Notes under the pieces: model-generated
Databases searched by the model: none
The model's input: the letters and a program-made list of their open reading frames with translations, nothing else
What the model was told of the DNA's origin: nothing
Program-made: the position numbers and the translations under genes
Shown here: positions 2,419-64,000 of the stretch, one piece after another
Layout of the letters: each line of letters opens with the position of its first letter
Position numbering within the stretch: position 1 is the first letter of the stretch
Virus record (IMG/VR): IMGVR_UViG_3300020042_002824
Length of the DNA: 64,000 bases
Strand: one strand, 5' to 3'
Source: a virus
Taxonomy: Duplodnaviria > Heunggongvirae > Uroviricota > Caudoviricetes

Positions 2419-4776
2419 TTAAATTGTTTCTAATTCATCAATTGTGTCTTCTGTCAATGTCTCCTCTAAAGGAGCATCTTCTGTTAATATGAGCTTGTAA
2501 TGCTCTAAGTTCACTTTGTGTTTATAATACTTAAATAGATCAATGATAGCTTTTACAATACCAGAATCTGTATTAGATCTGGTGCTATAAGTTGTTTTAT
2601 CTAGCAATGTATTTAAGAATGGTAGTTTGCTAAACACTTCACAAACTTGTTTATATGTTGTATATATAGGTTCATCATATAACCTATTCTCTGTAGCATG
2701 CAATATGATTGCTTTTATAGTTTCTTGATCTGCATAACTTCTATGGTTTTTATCATCATAGTTTTTCAGCTCTAGCAATTTACTTGCCAGATCAGTAGAG
2801 ATGTCTTCCACTACATGAATTCTTCTAAATGTAGAATCCTTTTTCTCAATAAGATCACGTATTAAGAACTCTGTTGCTATCACCTTAAATGGTTTGTTCT
2901 TACCTTCCATAAATTTATCTAATGTTATCCAGTTATGTAAATCAGCTTTCTGTAAGTTATCATGGGTTGCTTGGGCTACTAGTACAAAATTCACTAGGTG
3001 ATTACCACGTGACCACAACGCATCCATTTTCTTCTTATCAACTTCTTTAGCATAAACATGTAACTTGTTGACTTTATGAGCATCCTCTAGTTTAAATGTT
3101 GTAGGAACAAACTTACAATATTGATCAGATAGATTAATATCCATTGGTGTACCCACCTTACCAGAGAACTCACCTTTCATTCTAACCTTCTTAGGACCCT
3201 TTACAGCTGCAATAGATACCTTCATTCGTTTAGCTTTCTGAGCATCTTTATATGATTGTGGTATTTCAATAGCGTCTGCATCTATAAAATCCTTGGCATA
3301 TAGTCCCACTACATACTGAAACTCTGTAATAAGTTGTCTCCATTGAGACTTTGGATAGCTACTAAGTTCTAAAACAGAATCATAAAACTTGCCATAATCA
3401 ACAGCTCCAGTTTTGCTTCTAAGCTTAAATGGTGCCTTCTTAACAAAATAGATGTGTTTATTACCTGGCAGAATAGTTCTTAGATAGTCTTGCTTACCCT
3501 TAGGAAGTTCATGACTATAAATGTATACACCACCAAAGTTATAACCTACTAAGTCTGACATTCTTAAATGATCATAATAGTAGCTTTTCATGTTCTGAAA
3601 CTTACTATTAACAAATCTATACTTAAACTTATACTCAGCAAGCATGTATTCTTTACCTTTTACAGCAAGTCTTTCTAAGTTCAATAACTTTATATTATCT
3701 AACTTAGGCTGTGCTACAGGTATACGTGAATGTTGTACAAGTCTGTCTATCTCATACTCTGGTTGATTAGGATCATTATACCAAGGTTTCATGTACTTAT
3801 TATTTCTACCATAGAATTCCATGATGGCTTTGATATCACTCTTTGTAGTGATGGCCTCGTTGAACTTCTCCATCCATACATCAGCCACTGTAGCTATCTT
3901 CTTAAGAATAGTTTCCTTAGCTTCCTTAGTATATCTAATAGCTTCTCTATTTGGTGTAGGGAATAATCCATCACTAAGACTGAATCTCAAAGCTAATTTC
4001 ATACCTATTCTATCAATGCCAAGCTTTTCCCAGTCAATAGGATAACTAACATTATCTAGACAAAGATGCATGTCATTGTTAGTGGCTAAGCTAGAATATT
4101 GGAAATGCTCACTTCTATATATTGTAAAGTCATTAGGAACAGTGTAACTGCCCAATGGTTCTACATCAAAATAAACATCATCAAAATAAGCTAGCTGCTC
4201 TTTAATCTTATTGTGGAATGAATGTCTGTCATAATAGTTAACAGGAACAATCACTTTTACACCATTGTCTTCTGTGGTTGGTATTTCATATAGAAGGTCA
4301 ATGCTGTTTGTATCTTCTCCTTCGTACATCATATACTTACGTTCCATACCATCTTTTCTACATACAAAGTAGAAACTAGAACTATAAGCTAATGGAGCCT
4401 TGAAACCAAGACCCATCATGCCTAACTCTGTATTACTGTCTCTTTTGGTTGACTTACCATACTTACTGATGATATTACGTACATCATCTGCATCTAAGCC
4501 AATACCAAAATCCTGAACAGAAAATTCATATGTATCTGCCTGTGTGTTTCTTTTAAATGAAACAATAATAGGCTTGTCACTTCCAGCTCTTCTGTGACTA
4601 TCAAGTGCATTGGATGCACATTCTCTGATAGTAGAGCCTATTGAATCTGAATATAGATTCTTACTTAACATCTGCATAAGGACTTGTGCAGAATCTAAGT
4701 CTAGTGACATTTTCACAGTTTCCTGTGTTTCTCCTTCTTGGAGGATGTGGGCTTCTGTCTGTTTTTCTAAAATCAT
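2419..4776 (-). CDS. Hsp90/HtpG-family GHKL ATPase (785 aa)
   Basis: N-terminus aligns by eye to the HtpG/Hsp90 N-domain: LMQMLSKNLYSDSIGSTIRECASNALDS versus HtpG [27 protein letters not shown] (Bergerat E-x3-N-A-x-D). G1 box DFGIGLDADDVRNIISKYGKSTK versus DNGVGMT..LGTIAKSGTK. G2 box GMMGLGFKAPLAYSSSF versus GQFGVGFYSAF. Confidence 0.75.
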   Translation of the reverse strand: MILEKQTEAHILQEGETQETVKMSLDLDSAQVLMQMLSKNLYSDSIGSTIRECASNALDSHRRAGSDKPIIVSFKRNTQADTYEFSVQDFGIGLDADDVRNIISKYGKSTKRDSNTELGMMGLGFKAPLAYSSSFYFVCRKDGMERKYMMYEGEDTNSIDLLYEIPTTEDNGVKVIVPVNYYDRHSFHNKIKEQLAYFDDVYFDVEPLGSYTVPNDFTIYRSEHFQYSSLATNNDMHLCLDNVSYPIDWEKLGIDRIGMKLALRFSLSDGLFPTPNREAIRYTKEAKETILKKIATVADVWMEKFNEAITTKSDIKAIMEFYGRNNKYMKPWYNDPNQPEYEIDRLVQHSRIPVAQPKLDNIKLLNLERLAVKGKEYMLAEYKFKYRFVNSKFQNMKSYYYDHLRMSDLVGYNFGGVYIYSHELPKGKQDYLRTILPGNKHIYFVKKAPFKLRSKTGAVDYGKFYDSVLELSSYPKSQWRQLITEFQYVVGLYAKDFIDADAIEIPQSYKDAQKAKRMKVSIAAVKGPKKVRMKGEFSGKVGTPMDINLSDQYCKFVPTTFKLEDAHKVNKLHVYAKEVDKKKMDALWSRGNHLVNFVLVAQATHDNLQKADLHNWITLDKFMEGKNKPFKVIATEFLIRDLIEKKDSTFRRIHVVEDISTDLASKLLELKNYDDKNHRSYADQETIKAIILHATENRLYDEPIYTTYKQVCEVFSKLPFLNTLLDKTTYSTRSNTDSGIVKAIIDLFKYYKHKVNLEHYKLILTEDAPLEETLTEDTIDELETI

Positions 4777-9041: not shown

Positions 9042-9713
9042 TTATTGATAATAATTGTCTATTGCATTAACTACTTCTTGTAAGTTGTTAGGTATCTTGA
9101 TTTCAGCAAACATACCATCTGGACTCTTTGCTGGATACTTCTTGAACCTGTTAGTTACAAAGTTATATGTGGCTGTGCCATCTTTACCTTCTTCCACGTG
9201 TGTGTACAAGCATATTGTTAACAATCCTTCTAATACAATCTGATTGTCAATCAACTTACCTGCTGTCTTAATTTTGTATCCTATAATCTCACCACCATCT
9301 TCAATAGTTTCAGGGTGTGTGAAATAGAACACTTTAAGATCATTTCTTAACTTCCTTGCTGTTCTAAATAGTTCCACCATGTCTTTAGCCATTAGCGTAA
9401 ACTTGGTAAATCCCACTTGGTCAGCTTTTGATACAATATTGAAACCCATAATGTAATTAGAGTCTTCAATAATGACGTTTTTGATGTGAGGTTGTCCTTC
9501 TGATATCTTTACTAATTGTTGTACAATAGTAATAGCATCATCTATTTCCTTGTAATTCTTGTTCTCAGCATTGTATAGCTTTTCTGCTCCTTTAAAAGGA
9601 AGCTCTTTCTTTGCTACGTTAATGATGAATGTTTCTTTGTGATCTAAATGTTTCACTGATGTTGACTTGCCAGTTCCTGTTGAACCAACAATTCCAATTA
9701 ATTTGCTTGCCAT
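9042..9713 (-). CDS. P-loop NTPase, Sak4/AAA_24-like (RecA-fold recombination ATPase candidate)
   Basis: N-terminal Walker A IGIVGSTGTGKST. A ~220-aa single-domain ATPase is typical of phage AAA_24/Sak4 proteins. Confidence 0.55.
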   Translation of the reverse strand: MASKLIGIVGSTGTGKSTSVKHLDHKETFIINVAKKELPFKGAEKLYNAENKNYKEIDDAITIVQQLVKISEGQPHIKNVIIEDSNYIMGFNIVSKADQVGFTKFTLMAKDMVELFRTARKLRNDLKVFYFTHPETIEDGGEIIGYKIKTAGKLIDNQIVLEGLLTICLYTHVEEGKDGTATYNFVTNRFKKYPAKSPDGMFAEIKIPNNLQEVVNAIDNYYQ

Positions 9714-9718
9714 GTTTT

Positions 9719-9934
9719 TTACTGATTTGTTTCCTCCAAAGGTACATCAACTTCTTGAGATTTCAAAATAATTTCTTTAGTTTTTGTTGAATCTATATTA
9801 TTAATTATATCATTATAAATAGCCTCTGCAACTTCTTTATCTCTACTCCATTTTACTGATGAACCATTCACTCTTACACCATACCAAGGGCTGTCGCTAA
9901 ATGGTTCCATTTGTTCAACTAAATCTACTTTCAT
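9719..9934 (-). CDS. hypothetical protein (71 aa)
   Basis: Small ORF with a 4-nt overlap to the upstream helicase gene. Confidence 0.45.
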   Translation of the reverse strand: MKVDLVEQMEPFSDSPWYGVRVNGSSVKWSRDKEVAEAIYNDIINNIDSTKTKEIILKSQEVDVPLEETNQ

Positions 9935-19423: not shown

Positions 19424-19730
19424 GTGTGTTTATTTTTTTTTTGTTTTTAAAATGTCTACTTGCTTCTTGTTGTCTAATCACCTGTTTTGGTATATCATTA
19501 ACCCAATCAGGTATACTATCTAGCATTTCTGCTACCTTTGTTGAAACAGGACTCGTTGGTTTTAATGGTAATGGTATTTTGTTAGAACTAAATCTACCTG
19601 TATCAACACCATCTTTAAACCTACCATCTATATACTTACGTTCTCCTGGTTTAGCGTCTATTCTTTTCATACTAACTAATTTAATGAAAGAGCCCCACAT
19701 TTCTGCAGGGCTCTCATCTTTACTAACCAA
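19362..19730 (-). CDS. hypothetical basic protein (122 aa; start uncertain)
   Basis: ORF overlapping 19133..19423 by 62 nt. May start at the internal Met. Confidence 0.35.
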   Translation of the reverse strand: MVSKDESPAEMWGSFIKLVSMKRIDAKPGERKYIDGRFKDGVDTGRFSSNKIPLPLKPTSPVSTKVAEMLDSIPDWVNDIPKQVIRQQEASRHFKNKKKINTHEKEHENVFKRRINNNDRNG

Positions 19731-21466: not shown

Positions 21467-21641
21467 AATATGTTATTAACGTTTGTAATAAAAAGGTTTA
21501 GCACCTGCTTGTTTGTAAAAGAACTGTGGATCATTAGAAGGACACAATGTCTCTCTAATAGCTGAGCATGATGACAGCAAGACTAATGCTATCATGGAAA
21601 TAAATAATACTTTTTTCATGTTTTTGTTTTTTTATGTGTGT

Positions 21642-22222: not shown

Positions 22223-23040
22223 GTGAATGTATGTTAATTGATTGATTATTAATGTGTTGTGTAAATAAAAATTTGATAGGCTGAGTGTTGACCTTCAATG
22301 TTATCATTTTCACAATGTTACCATTGCTTATACACACCAAGAATTACTTCTTAGTAGATAACAGTACCAGTATTTTACCTCACTCCTGAGGGATCTTTCT
22401 CTAGTTTAAATAAGTATTAATTTCTACCAAGTGGATTGGATAATCCTAAGCTACATCCCTGCAGCTACTTAGATATACTTTTTTTACTTCACAATTTTCC
22501 TTTCAGTACTAATTGTGCTGTCATTTTACATACAGATAAGGTACTTTGAACTAGAGAACTAACAGACTTTGTGAATTATTAATTTAATAATTTACAATAG
22601 CATAGTCCAGAACGTGCCATCAGATTATAGCTTACTCCCTTTTGAGGAATACGTACTATAACGTCCCAGTATAGATTACCAGTCTATGGTAGTTTAAGAT
22701 GCTATTACCACACCTTTGTCTACTGAATAACGCAGTTGTTCTTTTGGTAAAGTACTTCCACATATATTCTACAGGTTTTATCCTATTGCAGTTTCCTGCT
22801 CAATGGTGTATGCTGACACCATAGCTACTCAGAGGTTTCCCCACTATAGCTGTTACCCATTTGCTTACTTGGCCAGCACGAAGCTGTAGATATGCACTTG
22901 TTAATACATACCTTTTATACCTGTCACCAGGTTTATCCTAAAGACTATAAGCAGCCTTATCAAATTAGTTGACAATCAAGTTGTCTTTACGTGTACACCA
23001 TGAGTATTTCAACTCTGAAGGTTTTGATGTCGTACACTTA

Positions 23041-23068
23041 TCATTATAATCAGATTTGATTATAATGA
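23041..23068. repeat. perfect 11-bp inverted repeat (TCATTATAATC agattt GATTATAATGA)
   Basis: Read directly; inside the ORF-free region. Confidence 0.45.
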
Positions 23069-23410
23069 ATATACATTCAGGTATATCAGCCTACACAGTC
23101 TTGTAACTATAACTGGACTGTCCCACGCCAGCAACTTACTGGATACTGCTACATTTACAACGCTAGATTGTTCAACCTAGCCTTCTGTAACAGGAGAAGC
23201 ATAATGTATTAGTATAGGTTTTCAACTAATACTTGTAGCGTTTTCGTCCACTATTATAATACTCTTGTACTCAATGTACGTATGACATATCTTTTTGTCA
23301 GAATATTATATTCGTAGCTACATTATGAATCCCTCTGTACTCAAATGTGAGGTAGGTAGTCATTTAATCCTCATCTCATCTGTCTATCCTTGGGAAATAG
23401 AAATGGTACA

Positions 23411-23683
23411 TTATAACATGTCAGAATTAAATGACTCATTAAACTCATTAGCCATATCACCATTAAGAATTGAACTACTATAAGAAGAAGCAAAATCTAA
23501 CTCATAATAACCATTATGTTTATTAGCCATAAGTTTAGCATCCTCTAATGTATCTGTAAACCCTATATATCTATTACTATTATCATAGATAGAATAGAAA
23601 GCGTCATATCCCATATAAATGTTATTTAATGCTATATATATTGTTTGTATAGCGTAAATGAATGATGTGTCAAAATGTGTCAA
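23411..23683 (-). CDS. hypothetical protein (90 aa)
   Basis: Isolated ORF in the switch region. Confidence 0.4.
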   Translation of the reverse strand: MTHFDTSFIYAIQTIYIALNNIYMGYDAFYSIYDNSNRYIGFTDTLEDAKLMANKHNGYYELDFASSYSSSILNGDMANEFNESFNSDML

Positions 23684-23791
23684 TAAGTGGGGAAAGAGTA
23701 CACACCACCTCTCACAGCCACAGATAAAATGTTGAGAATCAATAGGTTGTCTCTCTTTTTACGCAACAAAGGTTCTATGCAAGTATAGAAA

Positions 23792-23825
23792 ACAAGAGAA
23801 CAGGCTTGTTAGCCCATTCTCTTGT
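23792..23825 (-). terminator. putative rho-independent terminator for gene 23837..24226 (9-bp stem ACAAGAGAA/TTCTCTTGT, then a T-run on the minus strand)
   Basis: Inverted repeat 12 nt downstream of the minus-strand stop, followed on the minus strand by TTTTCTATAC. Confidence 0.45.
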
Positions 23826-23836
23826 TAATGCTTTGA

Positions 23837-24226
23837 TTACAAAGCAAGTAATTCTTCTGGCAAGAACTCTTCGCTTCTCTCGTAAGAGACAACTTTGATG
23901 TCCTTCATTGCAATCTCTTGAACTGCACCTGTTCCTGGCATTGAGACAAAGGTGATTCCTTCTTCATTTTCAAGCAATGACAAGCCTGCAATCTCGTGGA
24001 TTGTAATCTTGCCTGCTCTAATCTCTTTGCTCAATTGCGCAGAGCAAGAAACAACACCTGAATTACCCTTGCTGTCTTTTAACAACAATGCAACACGCTT
24101 TGCAGGGTCATTAAGGTTCTTCCTGATGAAAGAGATAGAACCATTCTTGCCAATTAATTGGGCAATTGTACCATTGTCAGTTAATTCTCCTGACTGTCTT
24201 GTGTAGGCTGATAATTTGAATGCCAT
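23837..24226 (-). CDS. hypothetical protein (129 aa), stand-alone transcription unit
   Basis: ORF with its own downstream hairpin plus T-tract (23792-23825). The G-tract repeat region lies upstream. Confidence 0.5.
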   Translation of the reverse strand: MAFKLSAYTRQSGELTDNGTIAQLIGKNGSISFIRKNLNDPAKRVALLLKDSKGNSGVVSCSAQLSKEIRAGKITIHEIAGLSLLENEEGITFVSMPGTGAVQEIAMKDIKVVSYERSEEFLPEELLAL

Positions 24227-24256
24227 AGTTTTCTGTTTTTGTTTTTAATTAATAAT

Positions 24257-24440
24257 GTCAAGCGATGGGAGGGGTATCCCAACACTCTCAATTCTAGGAG
24301 GGGTATCAATAGGGAGTAGGCTCCCCTCCCATGGATATAATAAGAATGGGGGCTATGTAAAATTTTGGGGTGCTAGGGGGGATAGGTCTGTAAGAACAGG
24401 GGCATATAGAAAATTGTGTATATTATCAAAGCAGGGGATA
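24257..24440. repeat. array of ~8 G-tracts / GGGG-AT-AG-like iterons in divergent intergenic region
   Basis: GGGAGGGGTATCCC, GGAGGGGTATCA, GGGAGTAGGCTCCCCTCCC, TGGGGGCTATG, TTGGGGTGCTAGGGGGGATAGG, CAGGGGCATATAG, CAGGGGATAGTTCC. Highly atypical for the AT-rich context. Confidence 0.5.
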
Positions 24441-24856
24441 GTTCCATAAGGAACATTGCATGAATTTTTCCAAATTCTTCATGCAGGTTGAACTCTCTGG
24501 AAATTCCAGATGGTTCAGACTTCTGGGTTTGGCTGTGTTTCACTTCCTAGATTGTCCAGTTTATTATATAAAAGACTGGACATTTGTTACCTTTATATAT
24601 AGATAGGTAACATCTTTTGTCAAGCTATCCCTTGACTGTTGTCCCCCTGTGGTCAAGCTATGGCTTTACATAATGTGTCTTATAAGGGACAGGCTAGCCT
24701 TTGTAATGTTGCTTTTATGACACATTATGATATGACTTTACATATAATGATGGAATTATCTTACATATTATATGCTTTATAATATAGGGACCAATATTAT
24801 AATATCTTGTTGTATCAAAACTAGAAAATCCTGCAAGTTTTGATAATAGGCAAAAA

Positions 24857-24864
24857 TAAATTTG
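24857..24864 (+). promoter_or_regulatory. candidate Bacteroidota-type -7 promoter element TAAATTTG (TAnnTTTG) upstream of the first plus-strand gene
   Basis: Exact match to the TAnnTTTG consensus ~80 nt upstream of ATG 24943. The nearest upstream TTTG is only 14 nt away (consensus spacing ~19), so support is weak. Confidence 0.25.
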
Positions 24865-24942
24865 GTGGGTAATATATTTTCACACTACCTTTGAGGGTGG
24901 AGGGTGGGGAATAAACTCCATACACCTCGTCAAACAAGCTTA

Positions 24943-25194
24943 GATATGATGATGATAATTTATGGAATTGTACTGATTGTTCTGATTTTGATAACAGCTG
25001 TTGTAGCTTATGGGTTTACATGTTTTGAAGAGTGGGAGATAGGTATAGAATTCCTACCTAAGGATTACAACAACTTTGAGCTAGGAGTGTCTAATAGAAA
25101 CTACACCCTTACAGATGGTGGTCTGGAACAGGAGCTTAGAATAGGGCTTCTTTTGTTTTGCTTTATAGCTGTATTCAGAAGATTTGATGCATAA
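24943..25194 (+). CDS. small membrane protein (83 aa)
   Basis: Track ORF 24904 starts at GTG. Trimmed to the first ATG (MMMIIYGIVLIVLILITAVVAYGF). N-terminal transmembrane helix plus a C-terminal hydrophobic segment. Confidence 0.45.
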   Translation, partial: DMMMIIYGIVLIVLILITAVVAYGFTCFEEWEIGIEFLPKDYNNFELGVSNRNYTLTDGGLEQELRIGLLLFCFIAVFRRFDA

Positions 25195-25259
25195 TATAGC
25201 ATTAACTTTCCTTATAACTAAAATAGTTATTTGTAGATCGTAAAGATATCCATACCTTT

Positions 25260-25634
25260 GTGTGTCAACTAATTATGGAAACCAACTCAACAAAACCTAT
25301 TGTACAGCGACTGAAAACATCAGTGTCAGACAATTATGCTCTGGCAGAGAAGTATTACAGGCTGTTGTCAGCTGTAAACAATCTGAAGCTTACAAATAGG
25401 GAGGTGCAGCTTATAGCCTTTACAGCTATAAAGGGTAACATAAGCTATGCTAATATAAGGAAGGAGTTTTGTGAAAGATACGAGAGTACAGCTCCTGCTA
25501 TAAATAACATCATCTCCAAGCTAAAGAAAATGGGGGTTTTTGTAAAGGATGGAACAAAGGTTAAGGTTAATCCTGTCATATTATTAAACTTTGACAAGGA
25601 TATTGTATTACAAATAACGCTGCTACATGGATAA
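25260..25634 (+). CDS. hypothetical protein, helix-turn-helix-like region (possible regulator)
   Basis: Track start is GTG at 25260; the first ATG is at 25275 (METNSTK). Segment LTNREVQLIAFTAI...APAINNIISKLKKMG is HTH-like. Confidence 0.45.
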   Translation: MCQLIMETNSTKPIVQRLKTSVSDNYALAEKYYRLLSAVNNLKLTNREVQLIAFTAIKGNISYANIRKEFCERYESTAPAINNIISKLKKMGVFVKDGTKVKVNPVILLNFDKDIVLQITLLHG

Positions 25635-25980
25635 GCCTATAAGTATGTCTGTTAAAGACTACCTTATCAGAACCCTGGCAGTGAAGATAATGGTCTCTGA
25701 GAAGGTGATTGAAACCATTGTGAACCACCAGTTCCAATCTGCCAATGAGGCAATGGACCTCCACAATAGTATTGAGGTTTCTGGGTTTGGAAAGTTTTAC
25801 TTCAACAATAAAAAGGCCAAGAAAAAGATATTATCATTGATTGGTAAAAAGCAAACAATGGAGCGTCATTTAGCTAACCCAGATGCAACAGAACAAAAGA
25901 AACATGCAGCTAAGGTGACACTTGATAAGACAGAGACATTAATAAACTTTCTCAAAACCAAGACTACAGATGAAAATTAA
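25627..25980 (+). CDS. HU/IHF-like DNA-binding protein candidate
   Basis: Pattern ...IRTLAVKIMVSEKVIETIVNHQF.....EAMDLHNSIEVSGFGKFYFNNKKAKK parallels HU (..V.LvGFGtFevr.R.aR). Confidence 0.45.
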   Translation: MDKPISMSVKDYLIRTLAVKIMVSEKVIETIVNHQFQSANEAMDLHNSIEVSGFGKFYFNNKKAKKKILSLIGKKQTMERHLANPDATEQKKHAAKVTLDKTETLINFLKTKTTDEN

Positions 25981-26269
25981 CTTCTCCCAAATATATGAAG
26001 GTTGGAAGAATAACCTTTTTCCAGCCAAAGCCCTAAGAACCTATATAAAGGATGTCAGTAATGAAAGAATGTCTATATGTGAAGACTGTGCGTTGATATC
26101 TACAAAACATAAGACAGTAAGACCAGATGTTCATTGTACAGACTGTGGTTGTACACTAGCTGCTAAAACAAAATGTTTATCTTGTGAATGTCCTCTTAAG
26201 AAATGGGAAGCTGTAATGAGCTCTAGAGAAGAAGAGGAATCACTTAAAAAAGAAATCTATGGCAAATAG
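25970..26269 (+). CDS. Cys-rich zinc-finger protein (99 aa)
   Basis: CEDCALIS...HCTDCGCTLAAKTKCLSCECPLKKW. Confidence 0.5.
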   Translation: MKINFSQIYEGWKNNLFPAKALRTYIKDVSNERMSICEDCALISTKHKTVRPDVHCTDCGCTLAAKTKCLSCECPLKKWEAVMSSREEEESLKKEIYGK

Positions 26270-59034: not shown

Positions 59035-62000
59035 AATGCCAGAAGAAAAAGTAATTAATTTAGGGACAGGTGATGCTACACAACCTACCTCTGAACCAAA
59101 AGTTGTTAACTTAGGTGGTCAGGCAAAGTTTCAAGACGTTAGTTTTGATGTTCCTTCAATTGATAGCAAGACAGGAATTGCAGGTGGTAATATGTCTGCT
59201 GAAGATATATGGAATAATATTACTCCAGAGAAAACTCGTGTCCCTCAACTTCCCACTTCTTCAATATATATTGGCAATAGATATAAAAGCAGTAGACCAT
59301 ATGAAACTGATCTAGAGGAGAAGTATGCACAACAACAAAGTGCATTAGATCAATGGAAAAATGGTGCATTAAAGTTTGTAGGTACAGCTACCAATAGTTT
59401 TATTTCTGGTACAGCTGGTACTGTTTATGGCTTAGGTGCTATGTGGAGAGATGGTAGATTCTCTTCTTTATTTGATAATGAAATTAATAGGAAGTTGGAT
59501 GATTCATACAAGGCATTAGAAGATGCACTTCCTAACTATATGACCCAGAAGCAAACTGATGCTAACTGGTATTCCCCTGATTATTTATTAACAGCTAACT
59601 TCTTTTCTGATGGTATCCTTAAAAACTTAGGATATTCATTAGGTACAATAGGAGGTGGTTTTGCATGGAGTAAAGCCATTAAAGCATTAGGCATAACAAG
59701 TAAGTTAGTCAAAGCAGGTCAAGGTCTAGAAGCAATGACAGCTGTAGAAGAATCTATGTCTGCAGTTCCTAGACTACAAAAGTTTGCTGCTTTTGATGGT
59801 GCACTTAACTCTGTAGCACAGAAGTATTTGAAGTCACCAGCAGCTTCTATATTAAGAAACTCAGACAGAATCATTACATCTGCTACAGGTACATTTGGTG
59901 AAGCAGGATTGGAAGGTCTTCATAATATGAATGTTTTTAGAGAGAACGCTATTGAAGAATATAGAAATAAATATGGTGAAACTCCTACAGGCAAAGACTT
60001 AGATTCTATTAATGAGTACACAGACAAAGTGGGTAACTTCACATGGGGAATGAACTCATTGTTACTTACAGCAACAAACTATATTCAACTTCCAAAGATA
60101 TTGGGTTCTTCTAAGAAAGCAGATGCTGCAATCATCAATGATATTGAGCAATCAGTAGTTGGTGGAGAGTGGGCTAAATACTTACCAAAGACAAGAATTG
60201 GTAAAATAGGTAGTGGTATTAGAAATGTTGGTGGTCTTATTGTATCTCCTTCAGAAGGATTTGAAGAGGGTTCACAATTTGCTATTCAAACTGGTGTTAA
60301 TGATTATTTCAATAGAGCATACAGAAACAGAAAAGATGTTTCTAGTTTCCTAAATAACATGAATGATGTTATGGGAAACATAACTAGCTATGGTATAGAT
60401 CAAACATTGTATACTAAAGAGGGTATGTCAAACGTACTTATAGGTGCGTTGTCTGGTGGTTTACAACAAGCTGGATATGCAGGGTCTTACCAAGATGAGC
60501 AAGGTAAAACTAAATTTGGATTTGGTAAGTCTGGTGAACTAGGAGAAAGAGGATTTTTTGGATATGGTGGTGAGAGAGGTAGAAATACAGACATAGCAAT
60601 AGAAGCGTTAAATAAAACAAACTCTTCAGCTGTTCTAAAAGATCTAGCTAACTATATTGGTATTGGTATTGGTTCTCAGAAAGCAAGACAAGCTGCTATC
60701 GTAGCTAATGATAAAGTGACTGAGAAAGATATGGAGCATGACTTCACTCTATCATATCTAATGCCTAGAGTTAAGTATGGTAAGATAGATGCTGTTGCCC
60801 AAGAACTATCCTATTACAAATCTCAAGCTATGGATAACGTAGGCTTTGAGGAATTAGTAGCTGATGGTGTAGTTAATGCTAATGAAACTAAAGAACAATT
60901 TGTTCAAAGACTTGATAACTTATCAGCGTTAGCTAAGCAGGTAGAAGATACCTATTCTATGGTTAGAGAAAGATATTCTAACCTTGTTGATAAGGAAGGT
61001 AACAAGTTGTATAATGATAAGGTGATAGACAAACTTGTATACGCTACAGCCAAAGTGGGTAACTATGATGTGCGTATTCCACAAGTGAATTCTATTTTAA
61101 ATGAGGCAGGTATTAACACTGGTCAAATACTACAAAGTATCATTGCAGGCAATGAGCCTAACAAACAAGCTACACAGGATGTATTAGATCAAATCAACAG
61201 CATGGATGTTATATCTGATGTTAAAGAAGATCTTAAAACTGCGTTGGCTGATGTTGTTGACCTTTCATTAAACAGAAGAAAATACATTCAAGAATATGAT
61301 GCTATCAAACAAGATCCCAAGGGGTATGAGGAGATGGACGAAGAGTTTGGTGCGGAGGAAGAGGTACCAGTTACTGTTGAACAAAAGATTGCAGCAGCAA
61401 AGAAGAAAGGCAAAGCTAAGATTGTTGAGAAGAAGTTAGAGATTGGTAAAGTGTATTCTCTTAAAGAGCCAGTCTTGGTACAAGATGGTAAATTAATATT
61501 TAAGCCAACGCTAAGTGTATTATCACAAACTTTAGGAGGAGAACTAGAAGTTCAACTTCCTACAGGTGATATAGCATTTATGACTCCACAACAGTTTAGA
61601 GACTACAATATTAGCGAAGATGAAACAGCTGAAGAGTTAGGATATATATTAGATAAGGCAATTGATAAAGTATTAAATAAGAAGAAGTATAGTGACATTG
61701 CTAAGCCTGAGGAAGGACAAAGCAAGATGGACTATGTAAACTCTTTAGACAATCCTGAATTAGTTAATGATATAGTTAAAGAGTTTGATGAACAATCAGC
61801 AGACTTTTTAAAGAACAGAGAGGCTGAAATAAAGAATCAAAAAGGTAATGCTCAAGTCCTTTCTACATCAGATACTGAATCAGTTCCAACAGATGTTCCT
61901 GTTCCAACAATATATGTAACTGATACAGATAATAGAAAAGATACCAATGTAGTTCCTAGAGCTACAGTTGCTACACAACAACTTCCTGGTTATAAGAACT

Positions 62001-64000
62001 CTGTTGCATTTGGTGCAAACCTATACAACTTTCCTAACAGAGAGAAGATACGTGGTGTATATGTTACATTAGCTAATGAAGAAATATTAGGACTTGGTGG
62101 ATTAATGAATCACATCAAGGGAACTAGTGATGTAGATCCTGCTAAGACTATTGCATTAGTAATGGTTGAGCAATCAGGAAATGGTGTAAAGCTTGTAGGT
62201 GTTGATGGACAATCAATAATAGGAAGCAACTTTGATAAGATTGTGTTCCAAGTAATGCCTGACCCTAAACTCCAATGGAGTGAAAAGTATGGTGGTAAGA
62301 GCATGTTCAGAGAGGGAACTCCTGATAATGTAATAAAAGCCATTACTAAAGAGTATACAAAGTTTGTAGAAGATACATTAGAAAATAAAGAACTTGAACC
62401 TCATAAGATAGAAGCATCTTTTGGTATACCTCAACCAGTGGTAGACACTGAAGGTAAACTTGTAGAGAATGCTAGAACAGGTGTAACAGAAGCTGGATTG
62501 ATCAAACAATCTGATTTAGCTGAGAAGCCTGTAATCTATGTTCCAACATTGGGAGACGGTGTAATATCAAGAGGATCAACACGTTATACCAAAGCATTAG
62601 GAAAACCATTCCTAATTGGAGCTAATGGTTATGTTGCTTTACAAAACAAACAACATAGTTTACAAGAAGCTACATTAATATATGATGCTATTTACAGACT
62701 ATCACAAATCAAATACACAGATGGTGATCTTAGTTCTGCTGAAGCCACTCGTTTATTAGAATGGTTAAGAAGTGTTGTATACTGGGGTAATCCAAAGAAC
62801 CAAGCTGGTGTTAATAGTATATGGTTTGACAAAGCAGGATTGATAGGATTGAAATTAAATATTTCTAATGAAGGTATGAACGTACCATTCAGTCCTATTG
62901 GTATTGAATCAAACAAAGATAAGATAGTTGAGCAAGTACAAAAGATGTATGGTAATATAAGATCTGCTTATGTTGCTAAAGATTTGTCTAATTGGAATAA
63001 ACCATATGAGCAAATTACATCTGTAACTGCTGATGGTGTTATTAAATCTAAGACTTGGAAGAACTATCAATCATATTTATTATCTACAGAAGGTAGAACT
63101 GGACAAGAGACTCCTCTCACTGTACCTATCAGACCAACAAAAGGTGTGGGTGATACAAACAGAGAAGGTATCTACTTTGTAGTTACAGACACTGCTGATA
63201 GATATGCAGGTGTAGTAGATAAAGTTGGTAAAGAAAAACCAACTCTATTAACTCCTGGTGCTGTAAGAACAGGTGAGTTAGCTGAGACAGCTACAGCTAG
63301 ATATATTCTTGATAATCAAACACCTAATGTAATTGACAATCCTCAATTAGGAAAGATTACATTTGTAGCTGATGCTAAAGAACTTGAGACTAGTGGTGGT
63401 AAGAAAGGTATTAGTTTAGTTCAAGATGATCCAGGTAATACTAAAGCTATTGAAGCATTAGCTAAGAGTAGAAACATTGACAAGAAGAAAGCTACAGATC
63501 TTTTAGTAGCATCTATATATCAAAAGGTTGCTCCTCAACAAGCAGCACAATCTATTGCTCCTATTTCTGCTGAAGAAGCTGATATAGAAAAAAGAAGAAA
63601 AGAAGAGTTAGATAAGTATAAATCAGGAGACATTACAGTAGCTGGAGTTAAAGCTATTAATGCTAAATATAATGCAGAATTAAAAGCTTTAAATGTAAAA
63701 CCTACTACTAAAGCTGAAGAGAAGCAAGCTGCACAGATTGTTACAACTACTCTTGACGCAGAAGAGTTAATCAGAAAACAATTAAATAGCATGGGTGATG
63801 ATGCTCCTTTTCGTATTAAGACTAAGGATCAAATCACTAAGTTTGAAAAAGAAGACTGGCCTAAGATAGAAGCTTTCTTTAAAGCAAACTTCCCTAACAT
63901 TCCTTTATACAGAGTTAAGAATATAATCAGAGGAACTAATGGATTAGAAGCTTGGGGTATGTTAAAGAATGGTGGTGTATATGTATATGCCAACGCAGAA
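59035..64000 (+). CDS. giant virion protein, N-terminal 1655 aa only (runs off window end)
   Basis: ATG at 59035 (MPEEKVINLGTGD...), 6 nt after the previous stop. Stop-free to the window end. Not in the ORF track because no stop lies inside the window. Confidence 0.5.

Follow-up and report, generated by a model that had tools for sequence, protein, structure and literature searches.

A divergent intergenic region of a crAss-like phage is probably a mosaic of separate transcription-control signals

A 720-nt gap separates the start of a minus-strand gene (24226) from the first plus-strand gene (ATG at 24946) in the 64,000-nt stretch of viral DNA analysed here, hereafter the window. We regard this gap, with modest confidence, as a non-coding transcription-control mosaic of separate signals, placed between a leftward early/replication block and a rightward packaging/structural block, and not as an iteron array. 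The feature that a first-pass annotation had described as an iteron-like array appears to resolve into a promoter-attached block prone to G-quadruplex (G4) formation, a pair of operator-like dyads, a clade-specific hairpin element and recent duplications. The same annotation had taken the gap to be a divergent promoter or control region, and this is supported; the two gene blocks face outward from it.

The leftward (minus-strand) block begins with small genes of unassigned function and continues with DNA polymerase, primase, helicases and rIIA/rIIB; the rightward (plus-strand) block contains small genes, an HU-like protein, the large terminase (TerL), portal, capsid and a protein with a crAss muzzle domain. 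TerL is 25-40% identical to its counterparts in Cellulophaga, Flavobacterium and Bacteroides phages and in crAss-like phages, and this kinship, together with the terminase, portal and capsid matches and the muzzle domain, identifies the source genome as that of a crAss-like phage of ~114 kb with a Bacteroidota host. The GC content of the genome is 35%. The first leftward gene (23837-24226, minus strand) encodes a 129-aa protein that has no family match and that returned no matches when used as a search query, and its position is occupied by non-homologous or poorly conserved genes among relatives. The first rightward gene (24946-25194, plus strand) encodes 82 aa from its ATG, with a hydrophobic N-terminus, and the rightward genes are kept in 77 of 80 relatives.

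Because a DNA similarity search against 50,697 phage records gave no matches, relatives were collected by means of the terminase, which yielded 342 related viral contigs, 80 of which were retrieved for comparison. The comparisons rest on ~50 non-redundant relatives, with TerL proteins 83-96% identical and full-length contigs of 111-118 kb. Across this set the gap is itself a mosaic, its blocks being present or absent from relative to relative. A conservation map shows widely kept non-coding blocks at 24250-24345, 24650-24725, 24850-24910 and 25175-25270, and poor conservation at 24350-24440, the interval that holds G-tracts 3-7. Leptolyngbya phage Lbo-JY46, the closest cultured phage by TerL, carries a tRNA array in the corresponding place and lacks any similar element. 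An Rfam search of positions 23000-26000 gave no match at E<=1, and when five relative loci were searched whole, the only matches were two weak ones of snoRNA type (E 0.21 and 0.51), both outside the region. A tRNA scan found nothing relevant, a scan for sigma-70-type promoters and terminators gave matches at no more than chance level, and the motifs of the region do not recur elsewhere in the window, with the exception of an A-rich translation leader.

The G-tract cluster that had first drawn attention to the region is real. Seven runs of four or more Gs, where about eight had been counted, fall within 167 nt (24271-74, 24300-03, 24348-52, 24367-70, 24376-81, 24399-402 and 24434-37), a density far above chance given the 44 such runs in the whole window and an expectation of 0.13 per 185-nt stretch; no other 200-nt stretch of the window holds more than a few. 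Scoring by G4Hunter in 25-nt windows, for which the usual threshold is 1.2-1.5 (PMC4770238), places three of the five top-scoring windows of the 64 kb in the region, with 24366-90 (1.76) ranked first, 24891-915 (1.56) third and 24296-320 (1.32) joint fourth. Within the cluster, GGAGGGGTATC forms an exact 11-nt direct repeat (24268-78 and 24297-307), and the inverted pair reported earlier, ATGGGAGGGG (24265-74) and CCCCTCCCAT (24323-32), is perfect over 10 nt. The proposal that the tracts constitute one iteron family was not supported, as their contexts share only a G-run followed by TA-like bases, and the only widely conserved members, tracts 1-2 and the C-tract, are part of a larger non-repetitive element. 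Iterons would require at least three direct repeats of a single 17-22-bp unit, all in one orientation, and neither the G-tracts nor the dyads described below include such a set.

The remaining tracts have a more local history. G-tracts 4-7 (24367-24437, plus strand) are a lineage-specific insertion or partial duplication of a 'GGGGG-CTAT-N-AAAATTTTG' unit and are missing from five relatives (L006, L010, L012, L015 and L024), in which GGGGGCTATATAAAATTTTGG runs straight into AAGCAGGGGATAGTTCC; the window and its closest relatives have an extra ~60 nt containing a second, diverged unit of G-run and A/T tract. Tracts 3-7, found only in close relatives, appear to be lineage-specific local duplications, presumably recent copies of the G-run plus A/T-tract unit. 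Other palindromes of the gap include GTTCC-ATAA-GGAAC (24441-24454), a hairpin TGCATGAA...TTCATGCA (24457-24485), three long AT-centred palindromes (24489-517, 24553-82 and 24585-612) that behave as insert/delete cassettes between relatives, and an inverted repeat CATAATGTGTC...GACACATTATG (24669-24729) that is conserved among relatives. In many relatives GTTCCAYRTGGAAC recurs 3' of the A/T tract.

Upstream of the first rightward gene is a Bacteroidota sigma-A-type promoter (24852-24893, plus strand) composed of an A-rich upstream tract, a -33 TTTG (24861-64), a 21-nt AT-rich spacer and a -7 box, TACCTTTG (24886-93). The Bacteroides promoter motif consists of TTG at -33, a 19-21-bp AT-rich spacer and TAnnTTTG at -7 (PMC12068327), and TTTG-N21-TACCTTTG (24861-24893) matches it exactly, in the sense orientation and 53 nt 5' of the ATG at 24946. 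Another exact match, TTTG-N19-TACCTTTG (25230-25260, plus strand), forms a second sigma-A-type promoter upstream of the winged-helix gene considered below. We propose that host RNA polymerase carrying the primary sigma factor binds the first of these promoters.

Directly abutting its -7 box is a G-rich block, AGGGTGGAGGGTGGGG (24894-24909, plus strand), the predicted start of the rightward transcript. The earlier suggestion of a G4-capable motif just before the first plus-strand gene stands in substance, the motif being present, conserved and G4-prone, with a correction of 2 nt in its position: GGGTGGAGGGTGGGG lies at 24895-24909 within the block. About 45 unique relatives keep promoter and G block together; the sequence takes three forms, all of them G4-prone, and the block in relatives is 16-25 nt long and reads GAGGGTGGAGGGTGGG(G), GGGGnnnnnGGGTGGGG or G7-ATTTA-G7. 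Its G4Hunter score is 1.56 in the window; in 41 of 43 unique relatives it lies between 1.5 and 2.5, the two values below 0.5 having come from mis-anchored matches. The window's version, GGG-T-GG-A-GGG-T-GGGG, departs from the canonical four-G3 rule in that one tract is GG, and the canonical motif occurs in ten unique relatives, for example as G7-ATTTA-G7; the candidate quadruplex sequences are GAGGGTGGAGGGTGGGG and G7ATTTAG7.

Since the G block follows the -7 box without a gap, its bases are expected to be the first transcribed, on the non-template strand. The block would then be the 5' end of the rightward transcript, with transcription starting inside 24894-24909, and a G-quadruplex or R-loop formed there may influence initiation, promoter escape or RNA stability. 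Instead of forming a quadruplex, the block could act as a protein site or as plain sequence. A conserved leader hairpin at the 5' end, formed by the G block with a C/U tract 3' of it, was considered and rejected, as many relatives are without the C/U-rich partner; because that partner is present in some relatives only, the conserved feature is the G block and not a leader hairpin.

A second set of signals centres on GTCAAGCTAT, which occurs twice in the window (24619-28 and 24652-61). Two direct repeats had been reported here, the first embedded in a palindrome; both are present and the palindrome GTCAAG-N6-CTTGAC is confirmed, but the first copy had been placed ~3 nt away from its actual position. 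The consensus of the repeat is an 18-bp dyad, GTMAAG-N6-CTTKAC, of which unit 1 (24619-24636) is GTCAAGCTATCCCTTGAC, with the arms GTCAAG-N6-CTTGAC, and unit 2 (24652-24669) is GTCAAGCTATGGCTTTAC, 33 nt from unit 1 start to start. In 52 unique relatives the dyad was counted 46 times inside the region and not once in 610 kb outside it, with at most two copies per region; a pair spaced by 32-33 nt is present in 18 of the 52, and 24 have none. Being conserved, region-specific, dyad-symmetric and in helical phase, the repeats agree with the earlier suggestion of putative protein-binding sites, and a dimeric DNA-binding protein would fit their pattern.

The two dyads, three helical turns apart, may be operators for a phage DNA-binding protein, and the winged-helix and HU-like proteins encoded nearby would be the obvious candidates to bind them. 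The winged-helix protein (R124; 25275-25634, plus strand; 119 aa) is conserved in 77 of 80 relatives and has >2,000 homologues in public data and no Pfam domain. Its predicted structure is a winged helix with a core pLDDT of ~80-87, and its best structural matches, the N-domain of T4 MotA and MarR-family proteins, have a weak E value (~0.01) and a high probability. The HU/IHF-like DNA-binding protein (25627-25980, plus strand) matches Pfam PF00216 (E 2e-7) and phrog_379.

Several of these features have also to be weighed as parts of a replication origin, a reading that we consider rather unlikely, in which the hairpin element described below, the A/T tract and the dyads would be initiator sites and an unwinding element. 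In a variant of this proposal, the strong promoter with its G-rich non-template strand would give rise to a persistent R-loop that primes DNA synthesis; priming of the R-loop type occurs in ColE1, at T4 oriF/oriG and at mitochondrial CSBII. The cumulative GC skew has its minimum at ~24 kb, within the gap, and replication genes lie in the adjoining block. The hairpin element is single-copy and clade-specific, the dyads are in helical phase, G clusters stand directly 3' of a strong promoter, and in ~15 relatives a perfect DnaA-box 9-mer, TTATCCACA, lies just upstream of the promoter. However, gene orientation changes at exactly the point where the skew does, so that the skew is not independent evidence for an origin, and the window's own region contains no DnaA-box-like site even when one mismatch is allowed. 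Moreover, the G-tracts are not a repeated unit, the dyads amount to two copies and are absent from nearly half of the unique relatives, and in place of a long AT-rich unwinding region there is just an A/T tract of 8-15 nt.

In the transcription-control mosaic that we favour, the hairpin element is a third, separate signal. G-tracts 1-2 and the C-tract belong to this single-copy, clade-specific element of ~100 nt (24257-24366), which is the most widely conserved non-coding block of the region. It begins with G-run1, a 3-10-nt loop, a C-run, AAC, a variable stretch and a CAA box, and continues with an invariant GGGGT, GGRAGTAG, a 10-nt pyrimidine tract, CAT (in most relatives), ATAYAAT, G-run3 and an A/T tract. 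The exact core pattern was found in 48 viral contigs, once in each, and in none of 185,579 bacterial and archaeal genomes. In the relatives read, the element stands 34-50 nt from the start of the first leftward gene, whichever gene occupies that position.

The first part of the element is the hairpin IR1 (24257-24291), made up of G-run1 (24271-74), the loop TAT and CCC (24278-80), followed by AAC, with a weak outer stem TGGGA/TCTCA; a GTCAAG half-site (24257-62) lies within it. The core of G-run, loop and C-run is present in 38 of 41 aligned relatives, with a G4-6/C4-5 stem and a 3-5-nt loop in many, loops of 9-10 nt in others, and GGG(G)-TAT-CCC in the window. The outer-stem flanks pair better within than across sequences (z 3.3-4.9, 0/1000 permutations), mainly through Watson-Crick pairs, and the minus strand gives the hairpin a slightly better fold. 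The idea that the outer stem covaries universally did not survive a shuffle test (Fisher p = 0.19). The first hairpin appears to be real, with a covariation signal that is modest and that concerns this hairpin alone.

The second half of the element (24297-24332, plus strand) comprises GGA-GGGG-T, GGGAGTAG (24312-19) and the pyrimidine-only CTCCCCTCCC (24321-30), followed by AT. G-run2 and the T after it are invariant in relatives, and each position of the tract is at least 93% pyrimidine, with C and T at ~50:50 and never G at three of them. The four Gs can pair with the tract in several registers as a second inverted repeat whose changes are GC to GU only; no flank covariation and no true compensatory changes were found for it among relatives, and RNAalifold run on a plain MAFFT alignment recovered four G-C/G-U pairs only. 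On both strands the element as a whole is predicted to fold more stably than shuffled controls (mean z ~-1.4 for plus and ~-1.9 for minus, in ten relatives). It ends in an ATATAAT box (24335-41), G-run3 (24348-52) and the A/T tract AAAATTTT (24359-66), together spanning 24335-24366 on the plus strand, whose order and spacing are kept in relatives. Relatives of the L033 group have a -7 box, TATATTTG, and a 72-aa gene after the A/T tract, so that in them this tract is the upstream half of a promoter.

This architecture could be read as a structured non-coding RNA or attenuator-like leader on the plus strand, in which G-runs 1-3 compete for one C/U-rich tract and form alternative hairpins, an explanation that we hold to be quite unlikely. 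The exchange of C and T in the pyrimidine tract, to the exclusion of G, is what would be expected if the tract paired with the G-runs by G-C and G-U pairs; it would fit pairing with plus-strand G-runs but is not proof of it. In 29 of 40 relatives the plus strand gives the better fold of the second hairpin, in several relatives the tract pairs upstream or downstream with comparable probability, and long intergenic regions of the crAss-like phage phi14:2 are a source of abundant early non-coding RNAs. Against such an RNA, no plus-strand promoter is conserved 5' of the element (weak matches in 4 of 39 relatives), no canonical terminator lies downstream and no Rfam match was obtained. Furthermore, the second hairpin is without true compensatory changes, and both the Watson-Crick character of the covariation in the first hairpin and its slight preference for the minus strand run counter to a plus-strand RNA.

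The transcription-control reading places the element instead at the head of the leftward genes. A conserved minus-strand TTG-N17-23-TAnnTTTG was found nowhere in the region in any of 42 unique relatives, and because there is no such host-type leftward promoter, we infer that the element carries the start signal and/or a leader for early leftward transcription by a route other than sigma-A; it is the best candidate for this role. In phi14:2, early genes are transcribed by an injected phage polymerase that works on denatured DNA in vitro, and no early-promoter motif is known for this polymerase or for crAss-like phages. A more specific proposal, which we put forward tentatively and judge decidedly unlikely, is that the GC hairpin element (24257-24332) is an early promoter for a crAss-type injected RNA polymerase that would recognise it as an extruded DNA hairpin, in the manner of coliphage N4. 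If true, it would be the first conserved early-promoter signal in the crAss-like lineage and would account for the absence of a host-type promoter facing the early genes. The large ORFs of the window gave no sign of a virion RNA polymerase, that is, no DFDxD-type motif and no Pfam or PDB match; one ORF, 1654 aa or longer, is cut by the end of the window.

A packaging signal or genome end, such as a pac or cos site or the edge of a terminal repeat, at which the winged-helix and HU-like proteins would act as in lambda cosB/IHF, is in our view very improbable. The region is 2.2-2.9 kb upstream of TerL, a DNA-bending and a winged-helix protein are encoded between the two, and the contigs of 41 of 80 relatives end within 6 kb upstream of TerL, against three within 6 kb downstream. 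These ends, however, fall at different positions, several of them in or beside poly-G runs, which points to breaks in sequencing or assembly, and at least 13 contigs of 111-118 kb read through the region at arbitrary internal positions; a genome terminus was rejected on these grounds. Finally, chance composition or a small protein gene (a 64-aa ORF at 24255-24449) has next to no likelihood: although the ORF is present in the window and gives tblastn matches in nine close relatives, G-run density is far above expectation, the elements are conserved across relatives with 83-96% identical TerL, protein identity (40-63%) falls below DNA identity (76-86%), and relatives do not keep any frame open through the element (L036, for example, allows no more than 37 aa), so that the ORF is not a gene but, as had been suspected, an artefact.

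Few known viruses are as abundant as crAss-like phages. The clade considered here is large, a search with the winged-helix protein having returned >2,000 related proteins in public data. Its control region would present a compact set of signals in an AT-rich genome, namely a host promoter joined directly to a start region that is conserved and quadruplex-prone, a region-restricted operator-like pair beside its likely binders, and a single-copy hairpin where an early promoter must lie. If the G block does work as a switch through a quadruplex or an R-loop, it would, as far as we know, be one of few conserved cases from bacterial viruses; if it does not, the region would still provide a useful map of control signals for genome annotation.

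Compared with iteron origins such as lambda ori and plasmid oriV, the region has direct repeats and an A/T tract in non-coding DNA, beside replication genes and at a skew minimum. It differs from them in that its G-tracts share no common 17-22-bp unit, the dyads number only two, no extended AT-rich unwinding region is present and no initiator gene was found. The early promoters of the coliphage N4 virion RNA polymerase are hairpins with a 5-7-bp stem and a 3-nt loop. The early genes here likewise have a short GC hairpin immediately 5' of them, with a loop that is often 3-5 nt long, and the phage is of a type known to inject its own RNA polymerase; the hairpin is, however, present in one copy instead of three, its loop varies from 3 to 10 nt, and no virion RNA polymerase was found within this window. 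The long intergenic regions of phi14:2, which are highly transcribed, offer a further parallel, as the gap is likewise long, free of genes and situated in the early section of the genome of a crAss-like phage; the two have no sequence similarity, and nothing here is comparable to the tmRNA gene that lies in one of the phi14:2 regions.

The dyads resemble the operator pairs of phage and MarR-type winged-helix repressors in being 18-bp dyads, in two copies 32-33 bp apart on the same helix face, confined to the control region and with a winged-helix gene nearby. Unlike such operators, they lie ~230-270 bp upstream of the promoter motif, not over it, and nearly half of the relatives lack them. The G block can be set beside the promoter-proximal parallel G-quadruplex motif of human c-MYC, Pu27 (TGGGGAGGGTGGGGAGGGTGGGGAAGG). 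In contrast to Pu27, the block belongs to a bacterial virus with a 35% GC genome, has one GG tract and is a predicted quadruplex former with a putative regulatory role; the two are similar in sequence style (GAGGGTGGAGGGTGGGGAA here, GGGGAGTGTGGGTGGGGAAGG or G7-ATTTA-G7 in relatives), and the block also lies on the non-template strand beside a predicted start site and has a high G4Hunter score. With the primary-sigma promoters of Bacteroides and Flavobacteria, the rightward promoters share the same motif, placed on the sense strand before genes and conserved in relatives. Relative to these, the first promoter is distinguished by the conserved 16-25-nt G-rich block that adjoins it, a feature directly after the -7 box that, to our knowledge, is an addition to the described Bacteroidota promoter motif.

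An exact match to the host-type promoter (TTTG-N19-TACCTTTG) lies on the minus strand at window positions 9737-9770, a short way upstream of gene 9042-9713 on that strand. Host promoters are therefore predicted to serve the leftward block internally, but not its head. Directly upstream of minus-strand start codons, a further sequence, TGTTTTTGTTTTTAA, is repeated at 2408-2422, 19438-19450, 21619-21631 and 24234-24248; read on the minus strand as AAAAACAAAAACA, it is probably an A-rich translation-initiation leader, typical of Bacteroidota.

The non-coding region between the leftward and rightward blocks carries palindromes of 28-60 nt arranged in series, at 24489-24612 and 24669-24729 in the window and also in related loci (L004-L010, L019 and L036). 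Most of these palindromes start with TGT and end with ACA, and among close relatives they come and go as entire cassettes; the mosaic look of the region results from this gain and loss of whole palindromes. In one group of relatives an additional 72-aa gene, on the plus strand and with a promoter of its own (L046 3360-3578; L033 about 1990-2230), is inserted between the conserved hairpin element (window 24257-24366) and the 18-bp dyad repeats (24619-24669). Some of the relatives (L033 2320-2328; L036 3931-3939; L044 and L046-L052, about 3743-3757; also L064, L074 and L075) carry a perfect DnaA-box 9-mer, TTATCCACA, roughly 25 nt upstream of the rightward promoter's -33 element. This site is absent from the region in the window, even with one mismatch allowed.

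The relatives' contigs frequently start within or beside the poly-G runs of the region, as do L011, L017, L074, L002, L072 and L014. Contig ends fall no more than 6 kb upstream of the large terminase gene (TerL) in 41 of the 80 relatives, compared with 3 downstream, a pattern that looks like failure of sequencing or assembly at G-runs rather than genome ends.

The muzzle-protein gene is followed downstream by an ORF (59036-64000) that continues past the window end and is at least 1654 aa long. Pfam and PDB sequence searches returned no match for this ORF, which may encode a cargo protein or part of a virion RNA polymerase.

Among the relatives, Cellulophaga phage phi14:2 (L081; NC_021806) has a tmRNA gene inside 4031-4502, a segment that the phi14:2 preprint describes as one of two 'long non-coding RNA' regions of unknown function. 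The gene scores 46 bits against Rfam RF00023 (gathering score 47; E 7e-16), and ARAGORN predicts GSSVQKLAMVA as its tag peptide.

The conserved 119-aa protein encoded at window 25275-25634 has no match in Pfam and is predicted to adopt a winged-helix fold. In structural comparison its top hit is the N-terminal domain of MotA, the activator of T4 middle promoters (1bja; TM 0.65 normalised to target; E 0.011).
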